From an uncultured Gemmatimonadales bacterium (GTDB taxonomy: Bacteria; Gemmatimonadota; Gemmatimonadetes; Gemmatimonadales; GWC2-71-9), in contig CAWGED010000005.1 of the NCBI GenBank assembly GCA_963821525.1, positions 1,200,012 to 1,264,011 of the forward strand: DNA of 64,000 bases, in the 5' to 3' direction. Below the pieces are notes generated by a model. That model did no database searches, was not told the origin of the DNA, and saw only the letters and a program-made list of their open reading frames with translations. The stretch's first letter is position 1. Every line of letters begins with the position of its first letter. Positions 47,477 to 64,000 of this stretch are shown one piece after another. A program made the translations under genes and the position numbers.

Positions 47477-48964
47477 TTACCCCGCCGCCCTGGCAAGCAC
47501 GAATTCGGCGAACAGTCGCATGCAGGCCCCGGTGGGACCGCGCGCCCCGGTGGGGTCTTCCCGCTCGGTGTACGCAGTGCCGGCGATGTCGATATGGGCC
47601 CACTTGAAGTCGGACGCGAACTCCCGGAGGAACCATCCCGCGGAAATACTGCCGGCGGGCCGCCCGCCCGAGTTCTTCATGTCGGCGATGTCCGACTTGA
47701 TGAGATCGCGGTACTCGTCCCAGAGCGGCATGGGCCAGACCCGTTCTCCCGACCGATCGCCGGCTCGCCGGACTTCTTCGATCAGAGAATCATCGGTGCC
47801 CATGACTCCGGATGCCGCATGACCGAGTGCCACAACAATGGCGCCGGTCAGAGTCGCCGCGTCGAGGACGCAGGCCGGGGCGAAGCGCCTCGCGTAGGAG
47901 AGCGCGTCACACAGGATCAACCGCCCCTCCGCGTCGGTGTTCACGATCTCGATCGTCTTGCCCAGGTGGCTCTTCACCACATCGCCCGGCTTGAGCGCGG
48001 TGCCGCTGGGGAGATTCTCGGTGGAGGGTACCAGGCCGATCACGTTCAGCTTGGGCTTCAGGCGACCCAGCGTCTCGAAAACGCCCAGGACCGCCGCCGC
48101 ACCCGACATGTCGTACTTCATGTCCTCCATCTTGTCGGCCGGCTTGATCGAGATGCCACCGCTGTCGAACGTGACGCCCTTGCCGATCAGCACGACGGGA
48201 GCACCCTTGCCTCCCTTGTACTCCAGGGCGATGAAGCGCGGCTCCTGGGTGCTGCCCTGCGAAACGGACAGGAGTCCACCCATCCCTTCCTTCTTGATGG
48301 CGGCAAGATCCAGGACCGTGGCGCTGAACCCATGGCGGCGCGCGAGATCCTGAGCCGTGGTGCCGAGGTAGGTGGGAGTGCAGACATTCCCCGGCAGAAC
48401 CTGAAGACCGCGGGTCAGATTCTGCCTGCCCGCGATGGCCGCGCCGATCGCATGGCCCGCCTCGAACTCGGTCGGCCGGTCTCCGGCCAGAATGTCGATC
48501 TGCTCCAGGTCGGGCCGCTTCTCCTCGGGCGGCTGCTTCATCTCCCCGTAATACCATCCACCGTAGGCCAGACCCTCGGCGATCACCTGTCCCGCGTCCT
48601 TCGCCGTGACCGGCCCCAGCGCCTCGGGAGCCAGATGGAACGCGCCCGCCGGAACTCCGAGGGCCCGGGCACGCTTGGCAGCGATCGCCGCCGCACGCCG
48701 GATGGCCCCCCGAGTCTGCTCTCCCGCCTTGCCCATGCCGACGAGCAGGATGCGGGCGGCGGGACCCGGCGGGTGCAGCAGGGCCCACTCATCCTTCTTC
48801 CCCGCGAAGTCTCCCGTGCCCAGGACTCTGCTCAAGGCCCCCTGCACCTGGCGATCCAATGCGCCGAGGGAAGCCGGGAGTCCGCCGGTTGGCAGGGCAA
48901 GAATGAGCAGAGGCGTCTCGTACCCAGCGGGCGCCGCGGCACGGACGGTCGTCGTGAGGGGCAT
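47477..48964 (-). CDS. pepA: leucyl aminopeptidase (M17)
   Basis: GKGVTFDSGG, MKYDM and NTDAEGRL; probable start MPLTTT at 48964. Confidence 0.95.
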   Translation of the reverse strand: MPLTTTVRAAAPAGYETPLLILALPTGGLPASLGALDRQVQGALSRVLGTGDFAGKKDEWALLHPPGPAARILLVGMGKAGEQTRGAIRRAAAIAAKRARALGVPAGAFHLAPEALGPVTAKDAGQVIAEGLAYGGWYYGEMKQPPEEKRPDLEQIDILAGDRPTEFEAGHAIGAAIAGRQNLTRGLQVLPGNVCTPTYLGTTAQDLARRHGFSATVLDLAAIKKEGMGGLLSVSQGSTQEPRFIALEYKGGKGAPVVLIGKGVTFDSGGISIKPADKMEDMKYDMSGAAAVLGVFETLGRLKPKLNVIGLVPSTENLPSGTALKPGDVVKSHLGKTIEIVNTDAEGRLILCDALSYARRFAPACVLDAATLTGAIVVALGHAASGVMGTDDSLIEEVRRAGDRSGERVWPMPLWDEYRDLIKSDIADMKNSGGRPAGSISAGWFLREFASDFKWAHIDIAGTAYTEREDPTGARGPTGACMRLFAEFVLARAAG

Positions 48965-48993
48965 GGATGGCAGGTGCTGGAAAGGTGGAATGG

Positions 48994-50134
48994 TTACGTC
49001 CGGCGGCTGCGAATCGGCCGGTAGGGGCGATCGACCGCACCAATATACTCGGCTCGCGGCCGTAACAGGCGCTCGTCCTGGTATTGCTCGAGAACATGCG
49101 CGGCCCAGCCGGGCATGCGGCTCACCGCGAACACCGCGGTAAACAAGCTCGTCCGGGATTCCCACCGCGCGGTAGAGCGGTGCCAGGTAGAAATCCACGA
49201 TCGGGTACCGTCCGCTCCGTTCGACGACGCAGGCTTCGAGCGCTTTAGCGGTCTCCATCAGCGGAGTCAGTCCCGCGCGAGCGCATTGCGCCTCGGCCAG
49301 ACCGCGGAGGAATCCCGTCCGTGGATCCTCTCCCCGGAATACCTGATGCCCGAACCCCGCAATTCGGCTCCCTGCGGCCATTCGGGCCGTGACCCAGGGC
49401 TCGACCGCATCGGGGCGCCCGATCTCATCGAGGACTGCCGCGACGTTCCGGGCGTGAGCCCCATGCCGCGGCCCCGACAACGCCGACCACGCGGAAAGGA
49501 TCGAACCGAACAGGTCCGCTCCGGTTGCCGCCGTGACTCGGGCGGCAAAGGTCGAGGGATTCAGCTCGTTGTCGGCCCGGAGGATCAAGGCCGCATCGAG
49601 CGCGCGCACTGCCTCGGCGCTCGTATCCGCGCCGGGGAGCAAGGTGAGGAAGTTCTCAGCGAACCCGAGCGATTTCCTGGGGAGCACCGGCCGCTCGCCG
49701 CGTCGCAGCCGCGCCACCGCACCAACCATCGTGGGTGTGAGCGCCAGGAGCCGCATCGCCTGCTTGAGTCCGGTTTCGGCCGTGGGAGCCGATTCCCCTT
49801 CCTCGGTTGCCAGCACCGCCAACCCCACCCGCACCGCAGCCATGGGATCCGCCTGAGTGGGGACCTGTTTCAAGGCTCGCAGGATGGCAGGCGAGAGTTT
49901 CCGGCGGGAGCGCAGCACGCTGTTGAACTCGCGAAGCTCGGCGCCGGTCGGGAGGTCTCCGCGCAGGAGAAGGAAGGCGGTCTCTTCGAAAGTGGAACGC
50001 TCTCCCAATTCCCTCACGTCATAGCCGCGGTAACCCAGCCGGCCATCCGACGCGGAGAGCCGGCATACACTGGTTTGCAGGGCGATGACGTCGTCGAGAC
50101 CGCGCAGCGGCGCGGCCAGAGTGGGTCCGGTCAT
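48994..50134 (-). CDS. citrate synthase family protein, divergent (frameshift near 49145)
   Basis: GRLGYRGYDV, STFAARV, GPRHG, GFGH..DPR and VDFY; alternate-frame tail SRMPGWAAHVLEQ..LLRPRAEYIG with its own stop. Confidence 0.85.
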
Positions 50135-50163
50135 TCTCGGAGCACTGGACGTGGGGAGCGACG

Positions 50164-50187
50164 AAAAGCCCCGGCGAATGCCGGGGC
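50164..50187 (-). terminator. intrinsic terminator after cysA
   Basis: GCCCCGGC-ATTC-GCCGGGGC-TTTT on the minus strand. Confidence 0.75.
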
Positions 50188-50231
50188 GTGAAAGCTGGTG
50201 CGCGAGTCGCTGCCGGGCAACTGGCCGGCGG

Positions 50232-51290
50232 TCAGCGAGGGAAGATCCGGGCACTCCGGGGAGAGACGTAGACCTTGTCACCGCGGGAGAGAGCCAGCTC
50301 TTCGAAGCGGTGGCGAGACACTTCGGCCTCGATCAACTGGCCATCCTCCACCCGGTCCATCTCCAGCCGCACCATCGGGCCGTAGCGGCGAACGTGACGC
50401 ACCTCGGCCTCGATCGCCGGCCGCCCGTTCGGGGTCCGGGCAAGATCCACCTCGTAGGTCCGGACGTAGGCGACGGCGTCCTGGTCCGGAGCGCCCGCGA
50501 AATCAGGCGCATCCCATTCCCCGCCCTCGATTTTCACCCGGCCTTCGCTGAGCCGGCCATGAAACAGGTTGACGTTGCCGAGGAAGCTGTAGACGAAGGG
50601 TGTCGCAGGACGCTCGTAGACCTCTTCGGGCGTCCCCATCTGTTCCACCTGGCCCTCGTTCATCACCACGACCCGGTCGGAGACCTCCATGGCCTCTTCC
50701 TGGTCGTGGGTGACGAAGACGCTGGTGACGTGAACCTCGTCGTGCAGCCGCCGCAGCCAGCGCCGCAGTTCTTTCCGCACTTTGGCATCGAGCGCGCCGA
50801 ACGGCTCGTCCAGCAACAGAACCCTCGGCTTCACCGCCAGTGCGCGCGCCAATGCCACCCGCTGGCGTTGACCGCCGCTGAGCTGCGAGGGAAATCGATC
50901 CGCCAGCCAGTCCAGCTGCACCAGCTTGAGGAGATCCATGACCGTGGTCCTGATCTCATCTTGAGAAGGACGCACGTCCCGAGGACGGACTCGGAGGCCG
51001 AAGGCCACGTTCTCGAACACGCTCATGTGGCGGAAGAGGGCGTAGTGCTGGAAGACGAATCCCACCCGCCGCTCGCGAACATGCCGGGTCGTCGCGTCTT
51101 CTCCCGAGAACAGGATGGAGCCCGCATCGGGAGCGTCGAGTCCCGCGATGATCCGGAGCAGGGTCGTCTTGCCGCTGCCGGAAGGACCGAGCAGCGCCAC
51201 CAGCTCGCCGTCGGGAATTTCCAGCGACACGTTCTTCACCGCGGCAAAGGTGCCGAAGGCCTTGGTGACGCCTCTGATCTCGATGCTCAT
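50232..51290 (-). CDS. cysA: sulfate/thiosulfate ABC transporter ATP-binding protein
   Basis: [28 protein letters not shown] and [13 protein letters not shown]. Confidence 0.96.
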
Positions 51291-52210: not shown

Positions 52211-53038
52211 TCAGGCCGCTGCCCGCCGGCGGCCTGCCCACTGGAGCAGGTTGATGCCGAGCAGGATGATGAAGGAGAACACCAGCATGACCACGGCGAT
52301 CGCGGTGGCGCCGGGATAGTCGAATTGTTCCAGCTTGGTCATGATGAGGAGCGGGGCGATCTCGGTCTTCATCGGCATGTTGCCGGAGATGAAGACCACC
52401 GACCCGTACTCTCCCACCGAACGGGCAAACGCGAGCGCGAAGCCGGTGAGCAGTGCCGGCATCAGCGGCGGCAGCAGCACTCGCCGGAAGGTCTGCCACC
52501 GGCTGGCACCGAGGCTGGCCGCCGCCTCTTCGATTTCCCGCTCGAGATCCTGTAGCACCGGCTGAACCGTGCGAACTACGAAGGGCAGGCCGATGAACGT
52601 CAGCGCCACCGCGACGCCGAGGGGCGTGAAAGCCACCTTGATGCCAATCGCTTCCAGCCAGCGCCCGATCCAGCCATTCGGGCCATACAGTGTGGTCAGG
52701 GAGATGCCGGCGACCGCGGTCGGCAGCGCGAAAGGCAGATCAACCAGCGCGTCGATCAGCTTGCGTCCGGGGAAGCGGTAGCGCACCAGCACCCAGGCCA
52801 CGAGCAGGCCCGTCACGGCGTTAATCAATGCCGCGAGGAAGGCGGCCCCAAAGCTCAACCGATAAGAAGCAAGCACCCGCGGCGAAGTCGCACTCTCCCA
52901 GAAATGGCCCCACCCCAGCTCCGCCGACCGGAAGAAGATCGTCGAGAGCGGCAGCAGGACGAGCAGACTCAGATAGGTGATGGTGATCCCCATCGAGAGC
53001 CCGAAGCCCGGCAGCACGGAGTGGCGGCGGGAACTCAT
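52211..53038 (-). CDS. cysT: sulfate ABC transporter permease CysT
   Basis: [26 protein letters not shown] and [12 protein letters not shown]. Confidence 0.95.
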
Positions 53039-54166
53039 TTGGTCGAAGCGTCCTTCCACGGTGACCCTGACGCGGTGCCAGGCATTGTTCATGTAGCCCT
53101 TGAAGTTCCAGAGCGGCCGGGGATCCTCGGGTTGAGTGTTGCCCTCGGAGTCCCAAGCCCGGGCTGTGAGAACGTTGCTTCCGACTGGGAGGGTGAGCTC
53201 GAGCTGCCACAGGGTCCAGCTCCATGGGTCGCCCACTTTGGAGAGCTGAGCGTAATGCCAGCTGGCTCCACCGTCCGCGCTCACCTCGACCCGTTCGATC
53301 GTCCGTCCGCCATTGGCGCAGGCCCATCCGCTCACCGGTACCCTGCCCTGCGGCAACCTGGCCTCGGCTTGCGGCGACCAGATGACCGAGTTGAGCGGCA
53401 TATCCGACAGCGCGACACCCTGCTCCCACACCACGGAGGTCGCATCAACCTCAGGTGGAAACATCCGGTAGGCGTGACTCTGGAAGTAGTTGGTGGTTGG
53501 CGTGGTCTGCAGGTGAATGTTCGTCACCCACTTCACACTCCGGGCGCCGATGTAGCCCGGCACGATGACGCGCAACGGAAATCCGTGTACCGGAGGCAGC
53601 GGTGCGCCGTTCATCTCCCAGGCAAGCAGAGTTTCCTCGGCCATCGCCTTGCTCAACGGAATCGAGCCCCCGAATCCGAATCGTTTGCCCTCGCGCTCGA
53701 TTTCGTCGAGGCCGGTGAAAGCCGCATGCCGCGCCTCGGGACGGATTCCCGCCGTATCGAGCACTCGAGCCAGGCTCACGCCCCGCCACACCCCATTGCT
53801 CACCGGCTCGGCCCCCCACACCACCTCTCCCGGGATCGGGCGGACAGCGATCAGCTCGTCCCGCCGCAGTCCGGCGCAGGAGATGGTGGCCGGTACGGTC
53901 TCGACCGGGTAATCCCGGCGCAGCTGCTCCAGGGAGAGGCTCAGCGGTCGCTCCACCAGGCCATCGACGGTGAGCCGATAGCCCGCGGGATCGACCGATG
54001 GCACCGCCCCATGATTGCGGGTGAAAAACAGCTCCGTCGGCGTCACAGGGTGATCCCGCAGCAGTTCGGGCGGAGGGCCCGAGTTGAACCAGCGGGCGTC
54101 TCGCACCAGTTGCTTTGGATGTTTCCCATAGGGCATCGCGTCGGGTCGTTCGGTCATACGCACCAT
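53039..54166 (-). CDS. sulfite oxidase family molybdoenzyme (in frame with cysT in this assembly)
   Basis: FFTRNHG, CAGLRR (Mo-ligand Cys), [20 protein letters not shown] and [14 protein letters not shown]; no Tat signal or heme domain. Confidence 0.9.
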
Positions 54167-54170
54167 TTCT

Positions 54171-55181
54171 TTAGCGGTTCTCATAAATCTGATCGAAGAC
54201 ACCGCCATCTGCGAAGTGCGTCGCCTGTGCCTTGGTCCAGCCACCGAACACCTCGTCGATCGTGAACAGCGTGATCTGGGGGAACGTGGCGGCGTACTTC
54301 GTCGCGACCGCCTGGTTGCGCGGGCGATAGTAGTGCTTCGCGACCAGCTCCTGGCCCTGGTCGCTGTAGAGGAACTGGAGATAGGCCTGCGCTACTTCCA
54401 GCGTGCCCCGCTTCTTCGCCACCTTGTCCACGACCGTCACCGGCGGCTCCGCCAGGATGCTGACCGAGGGCACCACGATCTGGAACTTGTCCGGTCCCAG
54501 CTCCTTCACCGCCAGCAAGGCTTCATTCTCCCACGCGAGCAGGACGTCTCCGATTCCCCGCTCGACGAAGGTCGTGGTCGAGCCGCGAGCGCCCGAGTCG
54601 AGAACCGGAACGTTCTTGTAGATCCGGGCGACGAAATCCTTCGCCTTGGCCTGATCGCCGCCGAATTTCTTCAGGGCGTAGCCCCAGGCCGCGAGGTAAT
54701 TCCAGCGAGCGCCACCGGATGTTTTTGGATTCGGCGTGATTACCGAGAGGCCCGAACGGGCGATGTCATCCCAGTCCTTGATGTTCTTGGGATTCCCCTT
54801 CCGGACCAGGAAGACGATGGTCGAGGTGTAAGGGGCGCTGTTGTTGGGCAACCGCTTCTGCCAGTCGGCCGGAAATAGCTTGGCCTTCTGGGCGATCTCG
54901 TCGATGTCATAGGCGAGAGCGAGGGTAACCACGTCGGCCTCCAGGCCGTCGATTACCGAGCGGGCCTGTTTGCCTGAACCCCCGTGAGACTGCCGGATCG
55001 TGACGTCGACACCCTTCTCCGCCTTGTACTTCGCGGCGAAGGCGGCATTCACGTCCTGATACAACTCCCGGGTCGGATCGTAGGAGACATTGAGCAGAGT
55101 GACCGGCTTCTGGGCCTCGGCCGCCGTCGCCAGGCCGAGGGCAAGTGAAGCCGCCGCAACACCACGAATCAGGAAAGCCAT
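54171..55181 (-). CDS. sbp: sulfate ABC transporter substrate-binding protein
   Basis: [24 protein letters not shown] and [11 protein letters not shown]. Confidence 0.96.
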
Positions 55182-58613: not shown

Positions 58614-58667
58614 AACGATGTCCGAGTGAGTTGCTTTCTACAAGGCACTACACTCCCAGAGGGAAAA

Positions 58668-59018
58668 GTGACCAGAGAGCTCAATCCCACCGCCCGGTCC
58701 GACCGGCGCTCGGACTGCCCCATCGCCTGCTCTCTCGACCTGATCGGGGACCGCTGGACCCTGCTGATCGTGCGGGACCTGTTCCGCGGAAAGCGGCGGT
58801 TTTCCGAGTTCCTGGCCGCGGACGAAGGGATCAAGACCAACATCCTGACCGATCGGCTGAAGCGGCTGGAAGAGGCAGGTCTGGTGCAGCGCTCCCCGTA
58901 TCAGAAGCACCCGCCCCGGTACGACTACTACCTGACCAGCAAGGGACGGGACCTGTCTCCGGTCCTCAATGCGATCTTCGCCTGGGGCCGGGGATACTTC
59001 GACACCCACCACACATGA
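58668..59018 (+). CDS. HxlR/DUF24 family transcriptional regulator
   Basis: CPIACSLDLIGDRWTLLIVRDL, LTDRLKRLE and YYLTSKG. Confidence 0.93.
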   Translation: MTRELNPTARSDRRSDCPIACSLDLIGDRWTLLIVRDLFRGKRRFSEFLAADEGIKTNILTDRLKRLEEAGLVQRSPYQKHPPRYDYYLTSKGRDLSPVLNAIFAWGRGYFDTHHT

Positions 59019-60085
59019 AACCCAACGACGCTAACGGTCGACTGGCCCCGGAGGACCGGCCCTTCCGGGTCCTGGTCATCGCGGGCTCCAACCGCCGCCA
59101 ATACGACTGCCCCGGGATCGACTCCAAGGCCCGGACCCTGATGTTCCGCATGGCCGACCGGCTCCCCCAGGACTGGGAGATCGACCTCGAGGATCTGGGA
59201 AACATCTGGAACCGGGAGCAGATCCGGACCTGCAACGGCTGCGTCTCCACCTCGGCGGCGCTCTGCGTCTGGCCCTGCAACTGTTACGAGAAGGGCAGCT
59301 GGAACCAGCCCGACCTCATGTGGAACCTCGACCTCTATGCCCGGCTCGACCTGGCGGACGCCTGGGCCATCATCGGGCCGGTCAACTGGTACAACGCCAC
59401 CAGCAACCTCAAGGCGATGTTCGACCGGCTGGTCTGCATGAATGGAGGGAACCCGCGGGAGGACCTGATCGGACACAAGGACCCGAGTCTCGCCATTCAG
59501 CTGGAACACTCGGCTGAGTGGAACAAGCTGAGCCAGAACCATCTCGAGGGCCGGACGGCAGGCTTTTTCTGCTATGGAGACGGCGGCGCCGACGAGCTCA
59601 CCGAATCAGGCCGGCCCCGGTTCCTGCACCACCGCTCCTATTTCGATCCGGAAGAAGAGCCGTTCGAGGACATGCGGGACGCCTATGCGCCGATCGTCTG
59701 GCAATGCCGCTACAGTGGGATCGAGGTGCCGGACGCGCTCTGGCACTATGTCGAGTTTGGGCGGGACAAGAAGTACAGCGACAACCAGGCGGAGCACATG
59801 GTGGAAGACCCGGAGGTCATGGGCGAGTTCGACGCCTGGACGGACGCGTTCGCCAAGCACGTTGCGAAGAAGAGCCAGGTGAAACCGGGGCAATACCGCG
59901 CCTACGGCTACCGCCCGCCTTCACATCTCTGGGCCGATCTCAAGACCAAGTGGCGTGGGCTGCGGATGCTCCTGGGCAGGCCGATCCCGGGAACCTCACC
60001 CGCAATCCAGAAGGAGCGGGGGTTGAACCGTGATGCGGGGATCTTCTATAAGAAGGGAGAGGGTGCGAAGCTGCGGGACTCGTGA
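59015..60085 (+). CDS. flavodoxin-fold NAD(P)H-dependent reductase with Cys cluster
   Basis: VLVIAGSNR, CNGCVST..CVWPCNC and GPVNWY..LKAMFDRL; ATGA overlap with hxlR. Confidence 0.8.
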   Translation: MKPNDANGRLAPEDRPFRVLVIAGSNRRQYDCPGIDSKARTLMFRMADRLPQDWEIDLEDLGNIWNREQIRTCNGCVSTSAALCVWPCNCYEKGSWNQPDLMWNLDLYARLDLADAWAIIGPVNWYNATSNLKAMFDRLVCMNGGNPREDLIGHKDPSLAIQLEHSAEWNKLSQNHLEGRTAGFFCYGDGGADELTESGRPRFLHHRSYFDPEEEPFEDMRDAYAPIVWQCRYSGIEVPDALWHYVEFGRDKKYSDNQAEHMVEDPEVMGEFDAWTDAFAKHVAKKSQVKPGQYRAYGYRPPSHLWADLKTKWRGLRMLLGRPIPGTSPAIQKERGLNRDAGIFYKKGEGAKLRDS

Positions 60086-60277: not shown

Positions 60278-60900
60278 TCACAACTCGATTATCGCCCATG
60301 CCGCCCGAATCTCGATGGTCGCGATCTGCTCCCTTAGCTGCTCTCGCGCTGGACCTTGCTCATTCGGACGCATAGTCTTGAGCCGCACGATAAGCGACGG
60401 AAGACCGTCTAGAACCTGCTTCACATCCCTTAGGTGAATCAGTGAAGAAGTTACCGCGTGAACGGTTCTCTTGTTTGAACAAGTCAGGCCGGCTCGACAC
60501 CTCACGTAGCATGGGATGATCCAGCCAAGACCCGACTCACGAGTCGGGAACCCACCGAGCGAAGTCAATGACTTGAGACGCTCCGAGATATTTCATCAGT
60601 TCAGCCAGTGCCGCTGTCGCTAGGCTCTCCCGCTGCTCGAATGACCCTCCGCTGCTCTCGATCCCGTAACTCCGCGACATTGGCCCGAGCATGTTCAAGG
60701 GACTCTCTGGTGAAATAGGTGTACCAAACCAACCCAATCACTGTTAGCGCCGTGAGGGCGACAATCGGCTCGTAGCTAGATGGTTGGCCGCGGAATGCCG
60801 ATTGAGTTCCTGCCAAGTCGATGCCAGAATCGTCGTCGCCGTTCCGACCCAAGCGACGATCAGAGGAGATCGCCGTTTGGGTCCGAAGCCTTGCTCAAGA
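60278..60900 (-). pseudogene. fragmented hypothetical membrane protein
   Basis: TM-like segment IVALTALTVIGLVWYTYFTRESL in one frame with protein-like continuations in others; lower GC than flanks; boundaries approximate. Confidence 0.3.
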
Positions 60901-61066
60901 GCGTTTCCCCCCTGTAGACGACTCGGCTGGAGGGATTCTTCCCGGAGGGTCGGTTCCTTGAGGTTCGAATTGGGCACAGAAACCACGGTTGGGCCAAATC
61001 CCGGTCCAGGGTCGAGCGACAGCGAGGCTTCTGGGCGGTCCTTAGGCTTGATTGACTTGCTCATTA

Positions 61067-61121
61067 TGCCCGAGGCGAGAGTCGAACTCGCACGGGGTTG
61101 CCCCCGGCGGATTTTGAGTCC
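61067..61121 (-). mobile_element. tRNA-Leu(CAA) 3' fragment, probable att site of an integrated element
   Basis: GGA-CTCAAAA-TCCGC, long variable arm GGGG-CAA-CCCC, T-arm GCGAG-TTCGACT-CTCGC and acceptor 3' strand CTCGGGCA; D-arm and 5' acceptor strand absent. Confidence 0.85.
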
Positions 61122-62292: not shown

Positions 62293-62351
62293 GGGTCCGT
62301 CGGTGCTGGCGCCTCCAAGCAGGAGGTCGCGTTCGAATCGCGCCGGGCCCG
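62293..62351 (+). pseudogene. decayed tRNA-like sequence (Arg-like)
   Basis: GGGTCCG...CGGGCCC acceptor stem, GTTCGAATC T-loop and GCCTCC-AAGC anticodon remnant; D-arm missing. Confidence 0.5.
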
Positions 62352-62426
62352 CTCACCACCATCTAGACCAGATGGTGGGCTGATATCTGGGACTTCCCAT
62401 GGCGAGAGGCACATCAACCACACGCC

Positions 62427-63009
62427 TCAGAGTAGTGCCTTCAGAATCTGTTCCTTGCGAACATGTGTTGGACAGATCTCCGAGGCAAGGGAGCAGTGCT
62501 TAAGTTCATGCAGTCGTGCAGTAGTGCTTCTGAATGTTCTTCCGAATTTGGCCGGGGAAACTATTCGTAGTGCTTTTGTAACTGATTGGTAGAAGATTGA
62601 ATATCTTCGACGCAATGGATGGCTTTGTGGAAAACATCGCGACTTCGTTCTCGACGCCCGGAGCGGGTTCTAAAGCGATAATTACGTCCGCAGACGTCGC
62701 TTGAACTATTTCCAATGTGATCGCGTCACTCGCTGCAATGCGAAATCGTTCTCTCACCTGCTTTGCGTATTCCTTCTGTTCAGGGAAGTAGGCGATGACT
62801 CCTGGGAGCTTTAGTAGACGATCCCGAATCTGCTTTCGTTTTTCGTAAAGGCGGTTCTCCTTGCCCGGACCAAAAACCAGCACGTGAACGGGAGTTTCAT
62901 TTAGCCTCCTTTCCACTTCATCAAGTTTTGGGCTTATGGACTCGGCAAAGGTTCTTAGTGGACCTTTGAAGGAAGACACGGCGTCATCGCTACTCTTCCG
63001 CCCGCTCAC
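62427..63009 (-). CDS. nucleoside deoxyribosyltransferase-like / retron St85-effector-like protein (C-terminal frameshift)
   Basis: VLVFGPG, RKQIRDRL, AYFPE, LEIVQATSADVIIALEPAPGVENEVAMF and SF follow the motif order of NDT-fold retron effectors. Confidence 0.55.
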
Positions 63010-63469
63010 GCCAGTCCGGCCTGTTTGACGAGCGCAAACCCTCTTGTACTGGCGCCGACCCTAGCACCTTCACTATCGAGAAGTCCCCGATCATACAGAT
63101 CGAAGATTGTCTCAAACACTTTCGATCGGTCACCGTATTCGATGAGCTGGTCAACGGAGATTGGGGCATGAGCAGCCACGAACGCCAAGAGCGTGAGTAC
63201 AAACCTAGGATCTCTGGATAAGAGTTCAGCCGTTCGCCGAGCCTCTTCCAGCCGTTGTTCTGGTCCCCAATCGGCCAGCTTCCATGTTCATTCAGCGTGG
63301 CATCAACCCAGCTATCTCCACGGTCTCTCGGCACCTTGGTTTCAGGCCCAGGATGCAGTGTAGTTACCAGTGCATCAGGCTGGTCCCTTGAGGTTGCATC
63401 GGCCTCTTCATTGGACGATGACGAGATTGAGGCTGCCTGGGTTGTCTCGAGCATTTTTTGGGTTGTCAT
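63006..63469 (-). CDS. hypothetical protein with disordered N-terminus and winged-HTH-like C-terminus (frameshift near 63200)
   Basis: ORF 62990..63469 N-part joined to 63006..63188 (ISVDQL..VFETIFDLYDRGLL..STRG); 4-bp overlaps with both neighbours. Confidence 0.5.
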
Positions 63470-64000
63470 TGGATTTTCGCCTCCTCTTCGCTCAAGAGCT
63501 TGGCTGCCACGGCTTCTGCCACCTTGAATAGAGACTGATGTTCCCCGATTAAGTGGTCGATCTGCTCTCTTTTCCGAATGTTGGTGATGTAGCGATCCAA
63601 ATCGATCAGAAGAGCTCCGTCCTGGATGGCCACTGGTTCCCTTGAACGCTTGTACGGATAGTCACTTATGAACTTTGCCGCTTGTTCAGCGGTAAGGACA
63701 CCGATTGAAATATTGAGACCGTCTTCCTCGGAACCGTGATAGACCGAACAGGCAAAGTCGCGGGGCGGACCATAGGTATTCACCATCCACCACGGTAGCT
63801 GACCAGTTAAGACGCGAGTCCTTACTTGAGGTAGCAATTTCGCGAACGATGAACCCTCAGTTACACACTGGATCCGCCATCCGAAGCGAGCTGGCTCTGA
63901 ACCAGCAACCACTGAGTTCAGATAATCGTCCACCACTGCGACGACGTGCTTTCGAAGAGAGGGGAATCACGGGAATCATCAAAATCGAACCCGAGGAAAG
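63466..64000 (-). CDS. hypothetical protein, possibly TIGR04255-like (5' end outside window)
   Basis: PARFGWRIQ and LLIDLDRY loosely resemble the RIGLRY and LDID motifs; an open alternate frame reaches the window edge. Confidence 0.4.

Follow-up and report, generated by a model that had tools for sequence, protein, structure and literature searches.

Three genes close the 64,000-nucleotide stretch analysed here (the window), taken from contig CAWGED010000005.1 (positions 1,200,012 to 1,264,011) of an uncultured Gemmatimonadales bacterium. All lie on the minus strand: open reading frame (ORF) 1 at >63998..63466 (the feature as a whole spanning 63466..64000), its 5' part cut by the contig end; ORF2 at 63469..63006, encoding about 150 amino acids (aa); and ORF3 at 63009..62427, encoding about 193 aa. 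An ATGA at 63466-63469 couples ORF1 to ORF2 and a GTGA at 63006-63009 couples ORF2 to ORF3, bearing out the three minus-strand genes with 4-bp overlaps that a first, sequence-only reading of this DNA had described. N-glycosidases of the RcaT type are known as retron effectors, restrained by reverse transcriptase (RT) and multicopy single-stranded DNA (msDNA). We conclude that the trio is a real, rare, RT-free module around such a retron-type N-glycosidase.

The window's last letter is the end of contig C5, and the DNA upstream of ORF1 is unassembled. Since ORF1 homologues are about 240 aa long, the window copy is short of about 70 N-terminal codons, and the GTG at 63936 is therefore not its start. 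Comparison with intact homologues places one frame break near 63285 in ORF2 and another near 62510 in ORF3, whose C-terminal C..A..ICP.HV motif lies in the other frame and agrees with the intact homologues; a third break, near 63960 in ORF1, is probable from a by-eye reading only. The matched frames of the three genes contain no internal stops. In the same assembly (G000, the window's own genome, 81% complete), rpoB is broken into three pieces and valS into two, in differing frames. Because these genes are also split, the indels in all three genes of the trio are probably assembly or sequencing errors.

The motif order that had drawn attention to ORF3 (VFGPG, FPE, LE, ADVIIALE.APG and NE..MF) is indeed present, in a protein that consists of an NDT domain with an N-terminal helical extension and lacks a C-terminal DNA-binding domain. 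Pfam matched none of the three genes, and none of their homologues, above its cut-offs. PADLOC NDT_II-A matches ORF3 at E 3.6e-5, and NF038232 does so at E 2e-6, with 27.7 bits against a cut-off of 100 and over model positions 4-118 of 277 only. In the ESM Atlas, clusters of STM3845 rank first (0.91). A 20-row ORF3 profile (A1) searched against the PDB returned two hits, both retron effectors, with the Retron-Eco1 effector at E 4.9e-9. An exhaustive protein search found 69 relatives, of which 17 have E values no higher than 1e-10, and the nearest are mostly about 190-200 aa long (range 163-203 aa); a word-index search confirmed none of its 49 candidates.

The predicted structure tells the same story. 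The model of P0080, an intact relative of ORF3, has a pLDDT of 96, and its best fold match is again the Eco1 effector (Z 13.3, root-mean-square deviation 3.7, 146 aligned residues), followed by MilB, DNPH1, NDT and TIR at Z 10.3-11.6. E122 of ORF3 aligns with E106 of Eco1 (chain 8qbl, an E106A mutant, shows A in that column) and E100 with E85 of RcaT-Sen2; the spacing of 22 residues between the two equals that of E85/E107 in RcaT-Sen2 and of E82/E104 in alignment A8. By manual count, the catalytic Glu is kept in 19/20 rows of A1 and the second Glu in 15/20. On profile and model evidence, then, ORF3 is a predicted short NDT N-glycosidase of the RcaT/Eco1 type with its catalytic Glu in place, and the earlier suggestion of an NDT or retron-effector fold is upheld both by the sequence models and by the fold list that Eco1 heads.

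ORF3 shares the NDT fold and both Glu at the same spacing with the RcaT effectors of type II-A retrons (Retron-Eco1/Ec86 and Retron-Sen2/St85; STM3845, NF038232, PADLOC NDT_II-A), yet it differs from them in being about 193 aa rather than about 300 aa long, in lacking the fused DNA-binding domain and in having Leu in place of the triad Phe. Scoring below the curated NF038232 cut-off and lacking a DNA-binding domain in the same chain, it falls outside the STM3845/RcaT family as formally drawn. It also lies outside the RT-linked clade, and it is partnered by two unrelated proteins whose genes lie upstream. Our tree holds 42 hand-picked rows (37 of the 69 hits, P0054 included, with P0001, P0080 and four plasmid RcaTs), is midpoint-rooted and has long branches. 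In it, the full-length RcaTs cluster with one truncated hit in a supported group (100/97), while the NDT proteins of the trio are placed elsewhere, among short proteins. This supports only the separate grouping of the RT-linked RcaTs. Many further short (165-230 aa), stand-alone RcaT-like NDT proteins occur among the relatives (P0021-P0072); they are devoid of the N-terminal motif described below for the nearest homologues, and may be signs of further RT-free systems.

Could ORF3 be something more mundane? MilB and DNPH1 follow closely in the fold list (with NDT, Z 10.3-11.6 vs 13.3), the triad Phe is replaced and there are three indels within 1.6 kb, all of which would suit a MilB/DNPH1-like nucleotide N-hydrolase of salvage or sanitising metabolism, regulated by ORF2, or a window copy that is a pseudogene. 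However, the PDB profile hits are retron effectors only (2/2), the distribution of the family (below) is sporadic and mobile, and essential genes of the same assembly are frameshifted too, whereas the matched frames of the trio are free of internal stops. We consider a metabolic or decayed locus quite improbable.

ORF2 falls into two parts. Its N-terminal 60-85 aa are rich in S, T, P, E, D and Q and, in all three copies that we found, of low hydrophobicity, with a hydrophobic fraction of 0.17-0.22 against 0.33-0.38 in the C-terminal part. The C-terminal domain is conserved and helical, ends in TIFDLYD..LL...G.RV and shares 43-46% identity with ORF2 of L014 and L016, the two other loci described below. 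Searches of PDB sequences with ORF1 and with ORF2 gave no meaningful match. The earlier description of ORF2 as resembling a winged helix-turn-helix protein drew weak Pfam and profile hints (E 0.11-0.14) and otherwise stays a by-eye call.

Modelled together, the ORF2 C-terminal domain of L016 and ORF3 of L014 (proteins of different loci, folded with alignments of our own making) form a complex scoring 0.78, compared with 0.26 for the best of three controls; the mark applied to this score was reached by 116 of 157 solved pairs and by 2 of 215 mismatched pairs. Contact agreement is at least 91%, and the partner pLDDT at least 86. The predicted interface comprises ORF3 residues 3-32 and 179-194, that is, the N-terminal helices and the last helix, and leaves the catalytic Glu free. 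ORF2 is thus predicted to bind the terminal helices of ORF3, away from its active site, and on this model it is likely the antitoxin partner of ORF3. A [LF].G.[LFW] motif in the N-terminal helix occurs in 12/15 of the nearest ORF3 homologues and in 1/54 of the others, which suggests that the ORF2-binding surface marks a subfamily.

This predicted contact has a counterpart in the retron effectors. In the parts of 10.64898/2026.10.13.758329 available to us, the DNA-binding domain of RcaT-Sen2 is given as residues 1-21 plus 187-320, and the N-terminal helix of the predicted ORF3 interface corresponds to residues 1-21. As in type II-A RcaTs, this helix is predicted to pack on a winged-helix-like domain. 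The likeness could mean that the effector has been split: the ORF2 C-terminal domain, rather than being an antitoxin, would supply in trans the DNA-binding half that an RcaT-like effector is missing, ORF2 and ORF3 together would form the active toxin, and a TBP-like saddle in ORF1 would serve as both inhibitor and sensor in place of RT-msDNA, for instance sensing phage DNA. Over 30 columns, the ORF2 wing weakly matches the C-terminal end of a full-length effector (pairwise E 0.0074), which points the same way, as does the TATA-binding protein (TBP), which tops the Foldseek list for ORF1. Type II-A2 retrons also have the two domains parted by a frameshift, as far as the accessible text of PMC7736814 goes. 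However, profile alignment of the ORF2 C-terminal domain with five RcaT C-termini was not significant (2/40 and 9/40 shuffles scored as high), and ORF3 is not nested among the full-length RcaTs, which group apart from the short NDT proteins in the tree (100/97). A split effector seems to us unlikely, though still a serious contender.

The trio is not confined to the window. It recurs in the same order in all three independent loci for which DNA was available, namely the window, L014 and L015 (which are one locus) and L016 (from a Gemmatimonadales metagenome-assembled genome), and it is intact in the last two. The neighbourhood is thus conserved, as the sequence-only reading had proposed to check. 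A metagenome scan confirmed at least two of 601 stretches (L014 and L015), and further loci may lie beyond the metagenome matches listed; the scan that gave L016 confirmed 1/437. None of 50 candidates for ORF3 relatives on viral contigs held up, and tblastn matched nothing with ORF1 among phages and plasmids or with ORF3 among plasmids. Two of the four ORF1 homologues (see below) belong to L015 and L016, while for the other two the longest contigs match exactly in length those of ORF3 homologues (2431 and 4481 bp), so that they are likely co-encoded with ORF3 homologues as well.

No RT accompanies the trio in these places. We found no RT gene downstream of ORF3 in the window, none in L014/L015 or L016, and no RT-type DD motif in the long frames of L014, L015, L016 and L001. 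RVT_1 was absent from both genomes searched (G000, 81% complete, and the genome of L016). About 150 nt separate ORF1 of L014 from the end of a tRNA-Trp gene ahead of it. Rfam, which may not cover divergent retron RNAs, returned tRNAs only for the window and for L014/L016, and the regions upstream of the trio in L014 and L016 share no convincing RNA and no long element. Because the trio is intact in two independent loci without an RT, it is not a retron. The earlier idea that the effector is partnered by proteins other than an RT thus stands for both complete relatives, while the window itself is unreadable upstream of ORF1.

That unassembled upstream DNA, in a genome that is 81% complete, is what an ordinary type II-A retron would need, with its RT and non-coding RNA beyond the contig end. 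Yet both complete relatives lack an RT, their upstream DNA is unrelated and holds only tRNAs by Rfam. Moreover, the RT directly follows the effector in 3/4 plasmid RcaT loci, whereas the DNA after ORF3 is readable in the window and has none. We regard a retron hidden beyond the gap as very improbable. Of what makes a type II-A retron, the trio has the NDT effector with its catalytic Glu, but not the adjacent RT, nor any msr-msd that Rfam could find. In the accessible parts of PMC7736814, NDT effectors are described only with RTs; this includes type II-A2, in which the RT carries the DNA-binding half as a fused domain. The trio is not described in the main texts of the literature searched; that search did not extend to subscription journals or bioRxiv supplements, and the trio could be covered by DefenseFinder or by newer PADLOC models.

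Several observations concern the surroundings of the trio in its other loci. By eye, integrase-like remnants follow it in L014/L015, and in L016 a tyrosine integrase (PF00589) and a tRNA-Leu(TAA) are found about 3.5 kb away. A trypsin-like peptidase gene stands divergently upstream in L016 (L016:7247-8158, minus strand), and a gene for a 199-aa protein follows the trio there (L016:10787-11386, plus strand). In L016, ORF1 is preceded at about 65 nt by a perfect palindrome with 7-bp arms (L016:8758-8772), and a similar 15-mer occurs ahead of ORF1 in L014 (L014:715-729). This could possibly be an operator through which ORF2 regulates its own expression, the cross-locus match alone being within chance by a rough estimate.

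We found only four full-length homologues of ORF1 among 7059 candidates, 35-49% identical to the window protein, and a repeat search with five sequences gave at least two proteins among the best 8000 candidates. The ESM Atlas, queried with the truncated ORF1, returned nothing useful (best 0.75). An AlphaFold2 model of a relative, P0081, built from five sequences (pLDDT 72, pTM 0.74), shows two repeats of strand, helix, strands and helix. With this model, Foldseek places TBP throughout its top ranks (E 3e-5), at a TM score of only about 0.35, and an exhaustive aligner lists the McsB kinase, spermine synthase, the SerRS N-domain, TBP and VIA at Z 7-8. ORF1 is accordingly modelled as a duplicated, TBP-like saddle, which is a prediction of its fold. 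Separately, the best structural match to ORF1 is a 202-aa viral protein in BFVD (A0A515MGR4; TM 0.55/0.64), well above the rest.

The sequence-only reading had likened ORF1 to TIGR04255, a proposal that is weakly supported: a remote profile-profile match is found, but no match to the family's own model. The TIGR04255 hidden Markov model (HMM; 30-bit criterion) matches neither the window piece nor the full-length homologues at E up to 1. By contrast, hhalign of the ORF1 family against 17 TIGR04255 members gives a probability of 55.6 and a pairwise E of 1.2e-4; the global alignment (216 columns) scores above 40/40 column shuffles. The profiles align collinearly from end to end, with YP, R.G.R and LD.D.Y motifs in register. 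ORF1 may be linked to TIGR04255, weakly and remotely.

TIGR04255 occurs in 48 of the 401 genomes of our phylum sample. In the loci fetched (L017-L046), a coupled second gene was present in 30/30 and a third in 27/30, as tallied with lenient ORF rules in GC-rich DNA, with no control and among many close kin. Pfam hints at a helix-turn-helix in 3/12 second genes, and it names 3/13 third genes (RES, DUF7689 and DUF3800), none of the 13 being an NDT. Side by side with this, by-eye inspection suggested ADP-ribosyltransferase-like third genes in L023, L024, L036, L038 and L040-L046, and PemK-like ones in L017-L022, L025, L028, L030, L034 and L035. The main texts of the literature searched do not mention TIGR04255; in the portions of the PMC13092281 supplements available, it appears only among predicted novel defence genes and their neighbours. 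ORF1 thus resembles TIGR04255 proteins in its similar size and in taking first place in a coupled three-gene unit, but differs in that its family has no HMM match and that the scanned third genes of TIGR04255 loci include no NDT.

Two known kinds of system invite comparison. DS-42 (PRO1, from DefensePredictor) is a replicated defence system; its three genes encode proteins of 238, 190 and 363 aa, the third being a metallo-beta-lactamase (MBL) hydrolase, according to the available portion of PMC13092281. Like the trio, it consists of a coupled protein of about 240 aa, a small protein with a low-complexity-looking N-terminus and then an enzyme, and it lies in mobile DNA (L050); its third gene encodes an MBL hydrolase, whereas that of the trio encodes an NDT. 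Because we found no sequence link of DS-42 to ORF1 or TIGR04255, the parallel is one of layout only. In the toxin-antitoxin-chaperone systems HigBAC and CmdTAC, a third protein stabilises the antitoxin through an extension and doubles as a phage sensor, and the toxins are modular (10.1101/2024.02.24.581848, seen in part). Here we propose the same three-part logic by analogy, with the difference that their chaperone is SecB-like while ORF1 is predicted to be TBP-like and is about 240 aa long.

Putting these pieces together, the reading we favour, tentatively and at a little short of even confidence, is that the trio would be an RT-free, three-gene abortive-infection toxin-antitoxin system carried on integrative elements, in which ORF2 would clamp the RcaT-type N-glycosidase ORF3 until ORF1 sensed a phage. 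The ORF2 C-terminal domain would grip the N-terminal helices and the last helix of ORF3. Since this predicted grip is away from the active site, control would act through the oligomeric state of ORF3: by analogy with RcaT-Sen2, ORF2 may restrain oligomerisation rather than plug the active site. Toxicity of RcaT-Sen2 requires assembly from dimer to tetramer, according to the accessible part of 10.64898/2026.10.13.758329. The disordered N-terminus of ORF2 could be a lability or tether element, held, as in toxin-antitoxin-chaperone systems, in the concave sheet of the TBP-fold ORF1. ORF1 would act as the sensor, with a protein or nucleic acid of the phage competing for it; once ORF1 is occupied, ORF2 would be lost and ORF3 freed.

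Freed ORF3 would then cleave the N-glycosidic bonds of NAD+ or nucleotides, and the infected cell would be arrested. The activities published for such effectors differ from one another. The Eco1 effector is known to hydrolyse NAD+. The title of PDB entry 8qbk refers to an ADP-ribosylated effector, and the available text of 10.64898/2026.10.13.758329 gives F28/E85/E107 as the catalytic triad of RcaT-Sen2 and reports that this protein binds NAD+. One preprint, seen in part, reports depletion of adenine and nucleosides (10.1101/2023.08.16.553469).

A wider reading is more speculative, and we would call it doubtful. ORF1 and TIGR04255 may together mark out a so far undescribed class of three-part toxin-antitoxin systems directed against phages, with a bacterial TBP-fold protein as the sensor. 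This sensor would hold an antitoxin by its disordered tail, while the third gene would be a swappable warhead (RES, DUF3800, DUF7689 or possibly, as in DS-42, an MBL hydrolase). The locus described here would be the version armed with a retron N-glycosidase.

A number of points weigh against the phage-sensing toxin-antitoxin reading and its extension. For ORF3, the window has Leu at the place of the triad Phe (F28 of RcaT; F30, which is invariant, of A8), and an aromatic residue follows two positions on. Eco1 S100 corresponds to Ala, and D69 is not clearly retained; these changes may mean a differing substrate or weak activity. Some RcaTs are non-toxic alone, as stated in the part of 10.64898/2026.10.13.758329 that we could consult. 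For the complex, the two modelled proteins come from different loci, and the score may pass through likeness to the solved RcaT structures, because the RcaT-Sen2 DNA-binding domain includes the equivalent N-terminal helix. The ORF1 model is middling (pLDDT 72, five sequences), and Z scores of 7-8 are typical background; SecB is not listed among its fold matches, which is no proof of a difference. The local ORF1/TIGR04255 score was equalled by 2/40 shuffles, an earlier alignment of the two stayed within the shuffle range, and the gene counts in TIGR04255 loci carry the leniency described above. The first protein of DS-42 likewise scored within the shuffle range against the ORF1 and TIGR04255 profiles, in a comparison of low sensitivity made with a single sequence. 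Finally, only 3/17 of the closest relatives of ORF3 (E up to 1e-10) showed a sign of an ORF1 partner, the contigs of the others being unread, and the family is rare, with a convincing match in 1/401 phylum genomes, G000 itself.

The setting of the trio in the window is that of an island. GC content over 60-64 kb is 0.53-0.575, against 0.60-0.68 in the rest of the window and 0.63-0.66 per contig, confirming that the genes sit in low-GC DNA. A repeat of the 3' 56 bp of tRNA-Leu(CAA) (61066..61121, minus strand) resembles an attachment (att) site and bounds this low-GC island; it is 100% identical in several relatives, and within L011 it overlaps a whole tRNA-Leu(CAA). ARAGORN found no whole tRNA within the window, so the tRNA-anchored island previously proposed keeps its anchor in the form of this repeat but not of an intact gene. 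Because the G000 assembly contains no tRNA-Leu(CAA) gene, an intact copy beyond the assembly gap would fit. A 3' fragment of tRNA-Arg(CCG) at 62311..62350 (plus strand), just downstream of ORF3, is 88% identical over 43 bp to G000:C5 170644-170686 (E 1.6e-5) and is possibly an old att scar. It faces opposite to the tRNA-Leu repeat, and the two opposite-facing fragments suggest nested integrations. A same-genus genome carries two tRNA-Leu 3' repeats at this site with other cargo between them (L010, at G003:C2:15970-24693), which makes the tRNA-Leu site an integration hotspot. By eye, the cargo ORFs of L010 are Ser/Thr-kinase-like, oxidoreductase-like and aminotransferase-like, and the same flavodoxin-like gene adjoins.

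With all three loci at tRNA att sites or beside integrase genes, the trio might instead be an addiction or maintenance toxin-antitoxin system of an integrative element, with the same anatomy but responding to element loss or stress rather than to phage. It would also suit this idea that no known defence genes were seen adjoining the trio in L014 or L016, where only some ORFs were scanned. However, the closest characterised enzymes are anti-phage effectors, DS-42 protects against phage with the same layout, and it seems odd that simple addiction, which needs no third gene, should maintain one. We think addiction distinctly unlikely, and prefer a phage-triggered system.

A few other features of the window should be recorded. 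A candidate terminator read by eye, a 9-bp inverted repeat with a 5-nt loop, lies at 62356..62378 (minus strand), about 50 nt past the ORF3 stop. Just outside the tRNA-Leu repeat, also in low-GC DNA, a small gene (60601-61064, minus strand) with one hydrophobic segment is apparently frameshifted across two listed ORFs. Further away, long ORFs at 47477-50281, 52211-54244 and 58631-60085 seem by eye to be fusions of unrelated genes (citrate synthase with leucyl aminopeptidase, sulfite oxidase with sulfate permease, and a regulator with a flavodoxin-like gene), and these are probably further assembly indels.

The importance of the trio is limited in that the exact combination is rare, its hosts are uncultured and it is known here from sequence and models alone. 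Nevertheless, protein-only control of a retron-type toxin would be a previously undescribed mode. A short, RT-free relative of RcaT, predicted to be gripped by a small protein, is a minimal system that could serve to probe the action of the isolated NDT domain, its substrate and the route by which retrons came to have it. If ORF1 belongs with TIGR04255, the trio would also suggest, in a form that can be tested, how a common but uncharacterised family, and possibly DS-42, might work. And if the proposed class of TBP-fold sensors is real, a sensor made of protein alone could take the place of RT-msDNA in governing RcaT-type toxins.

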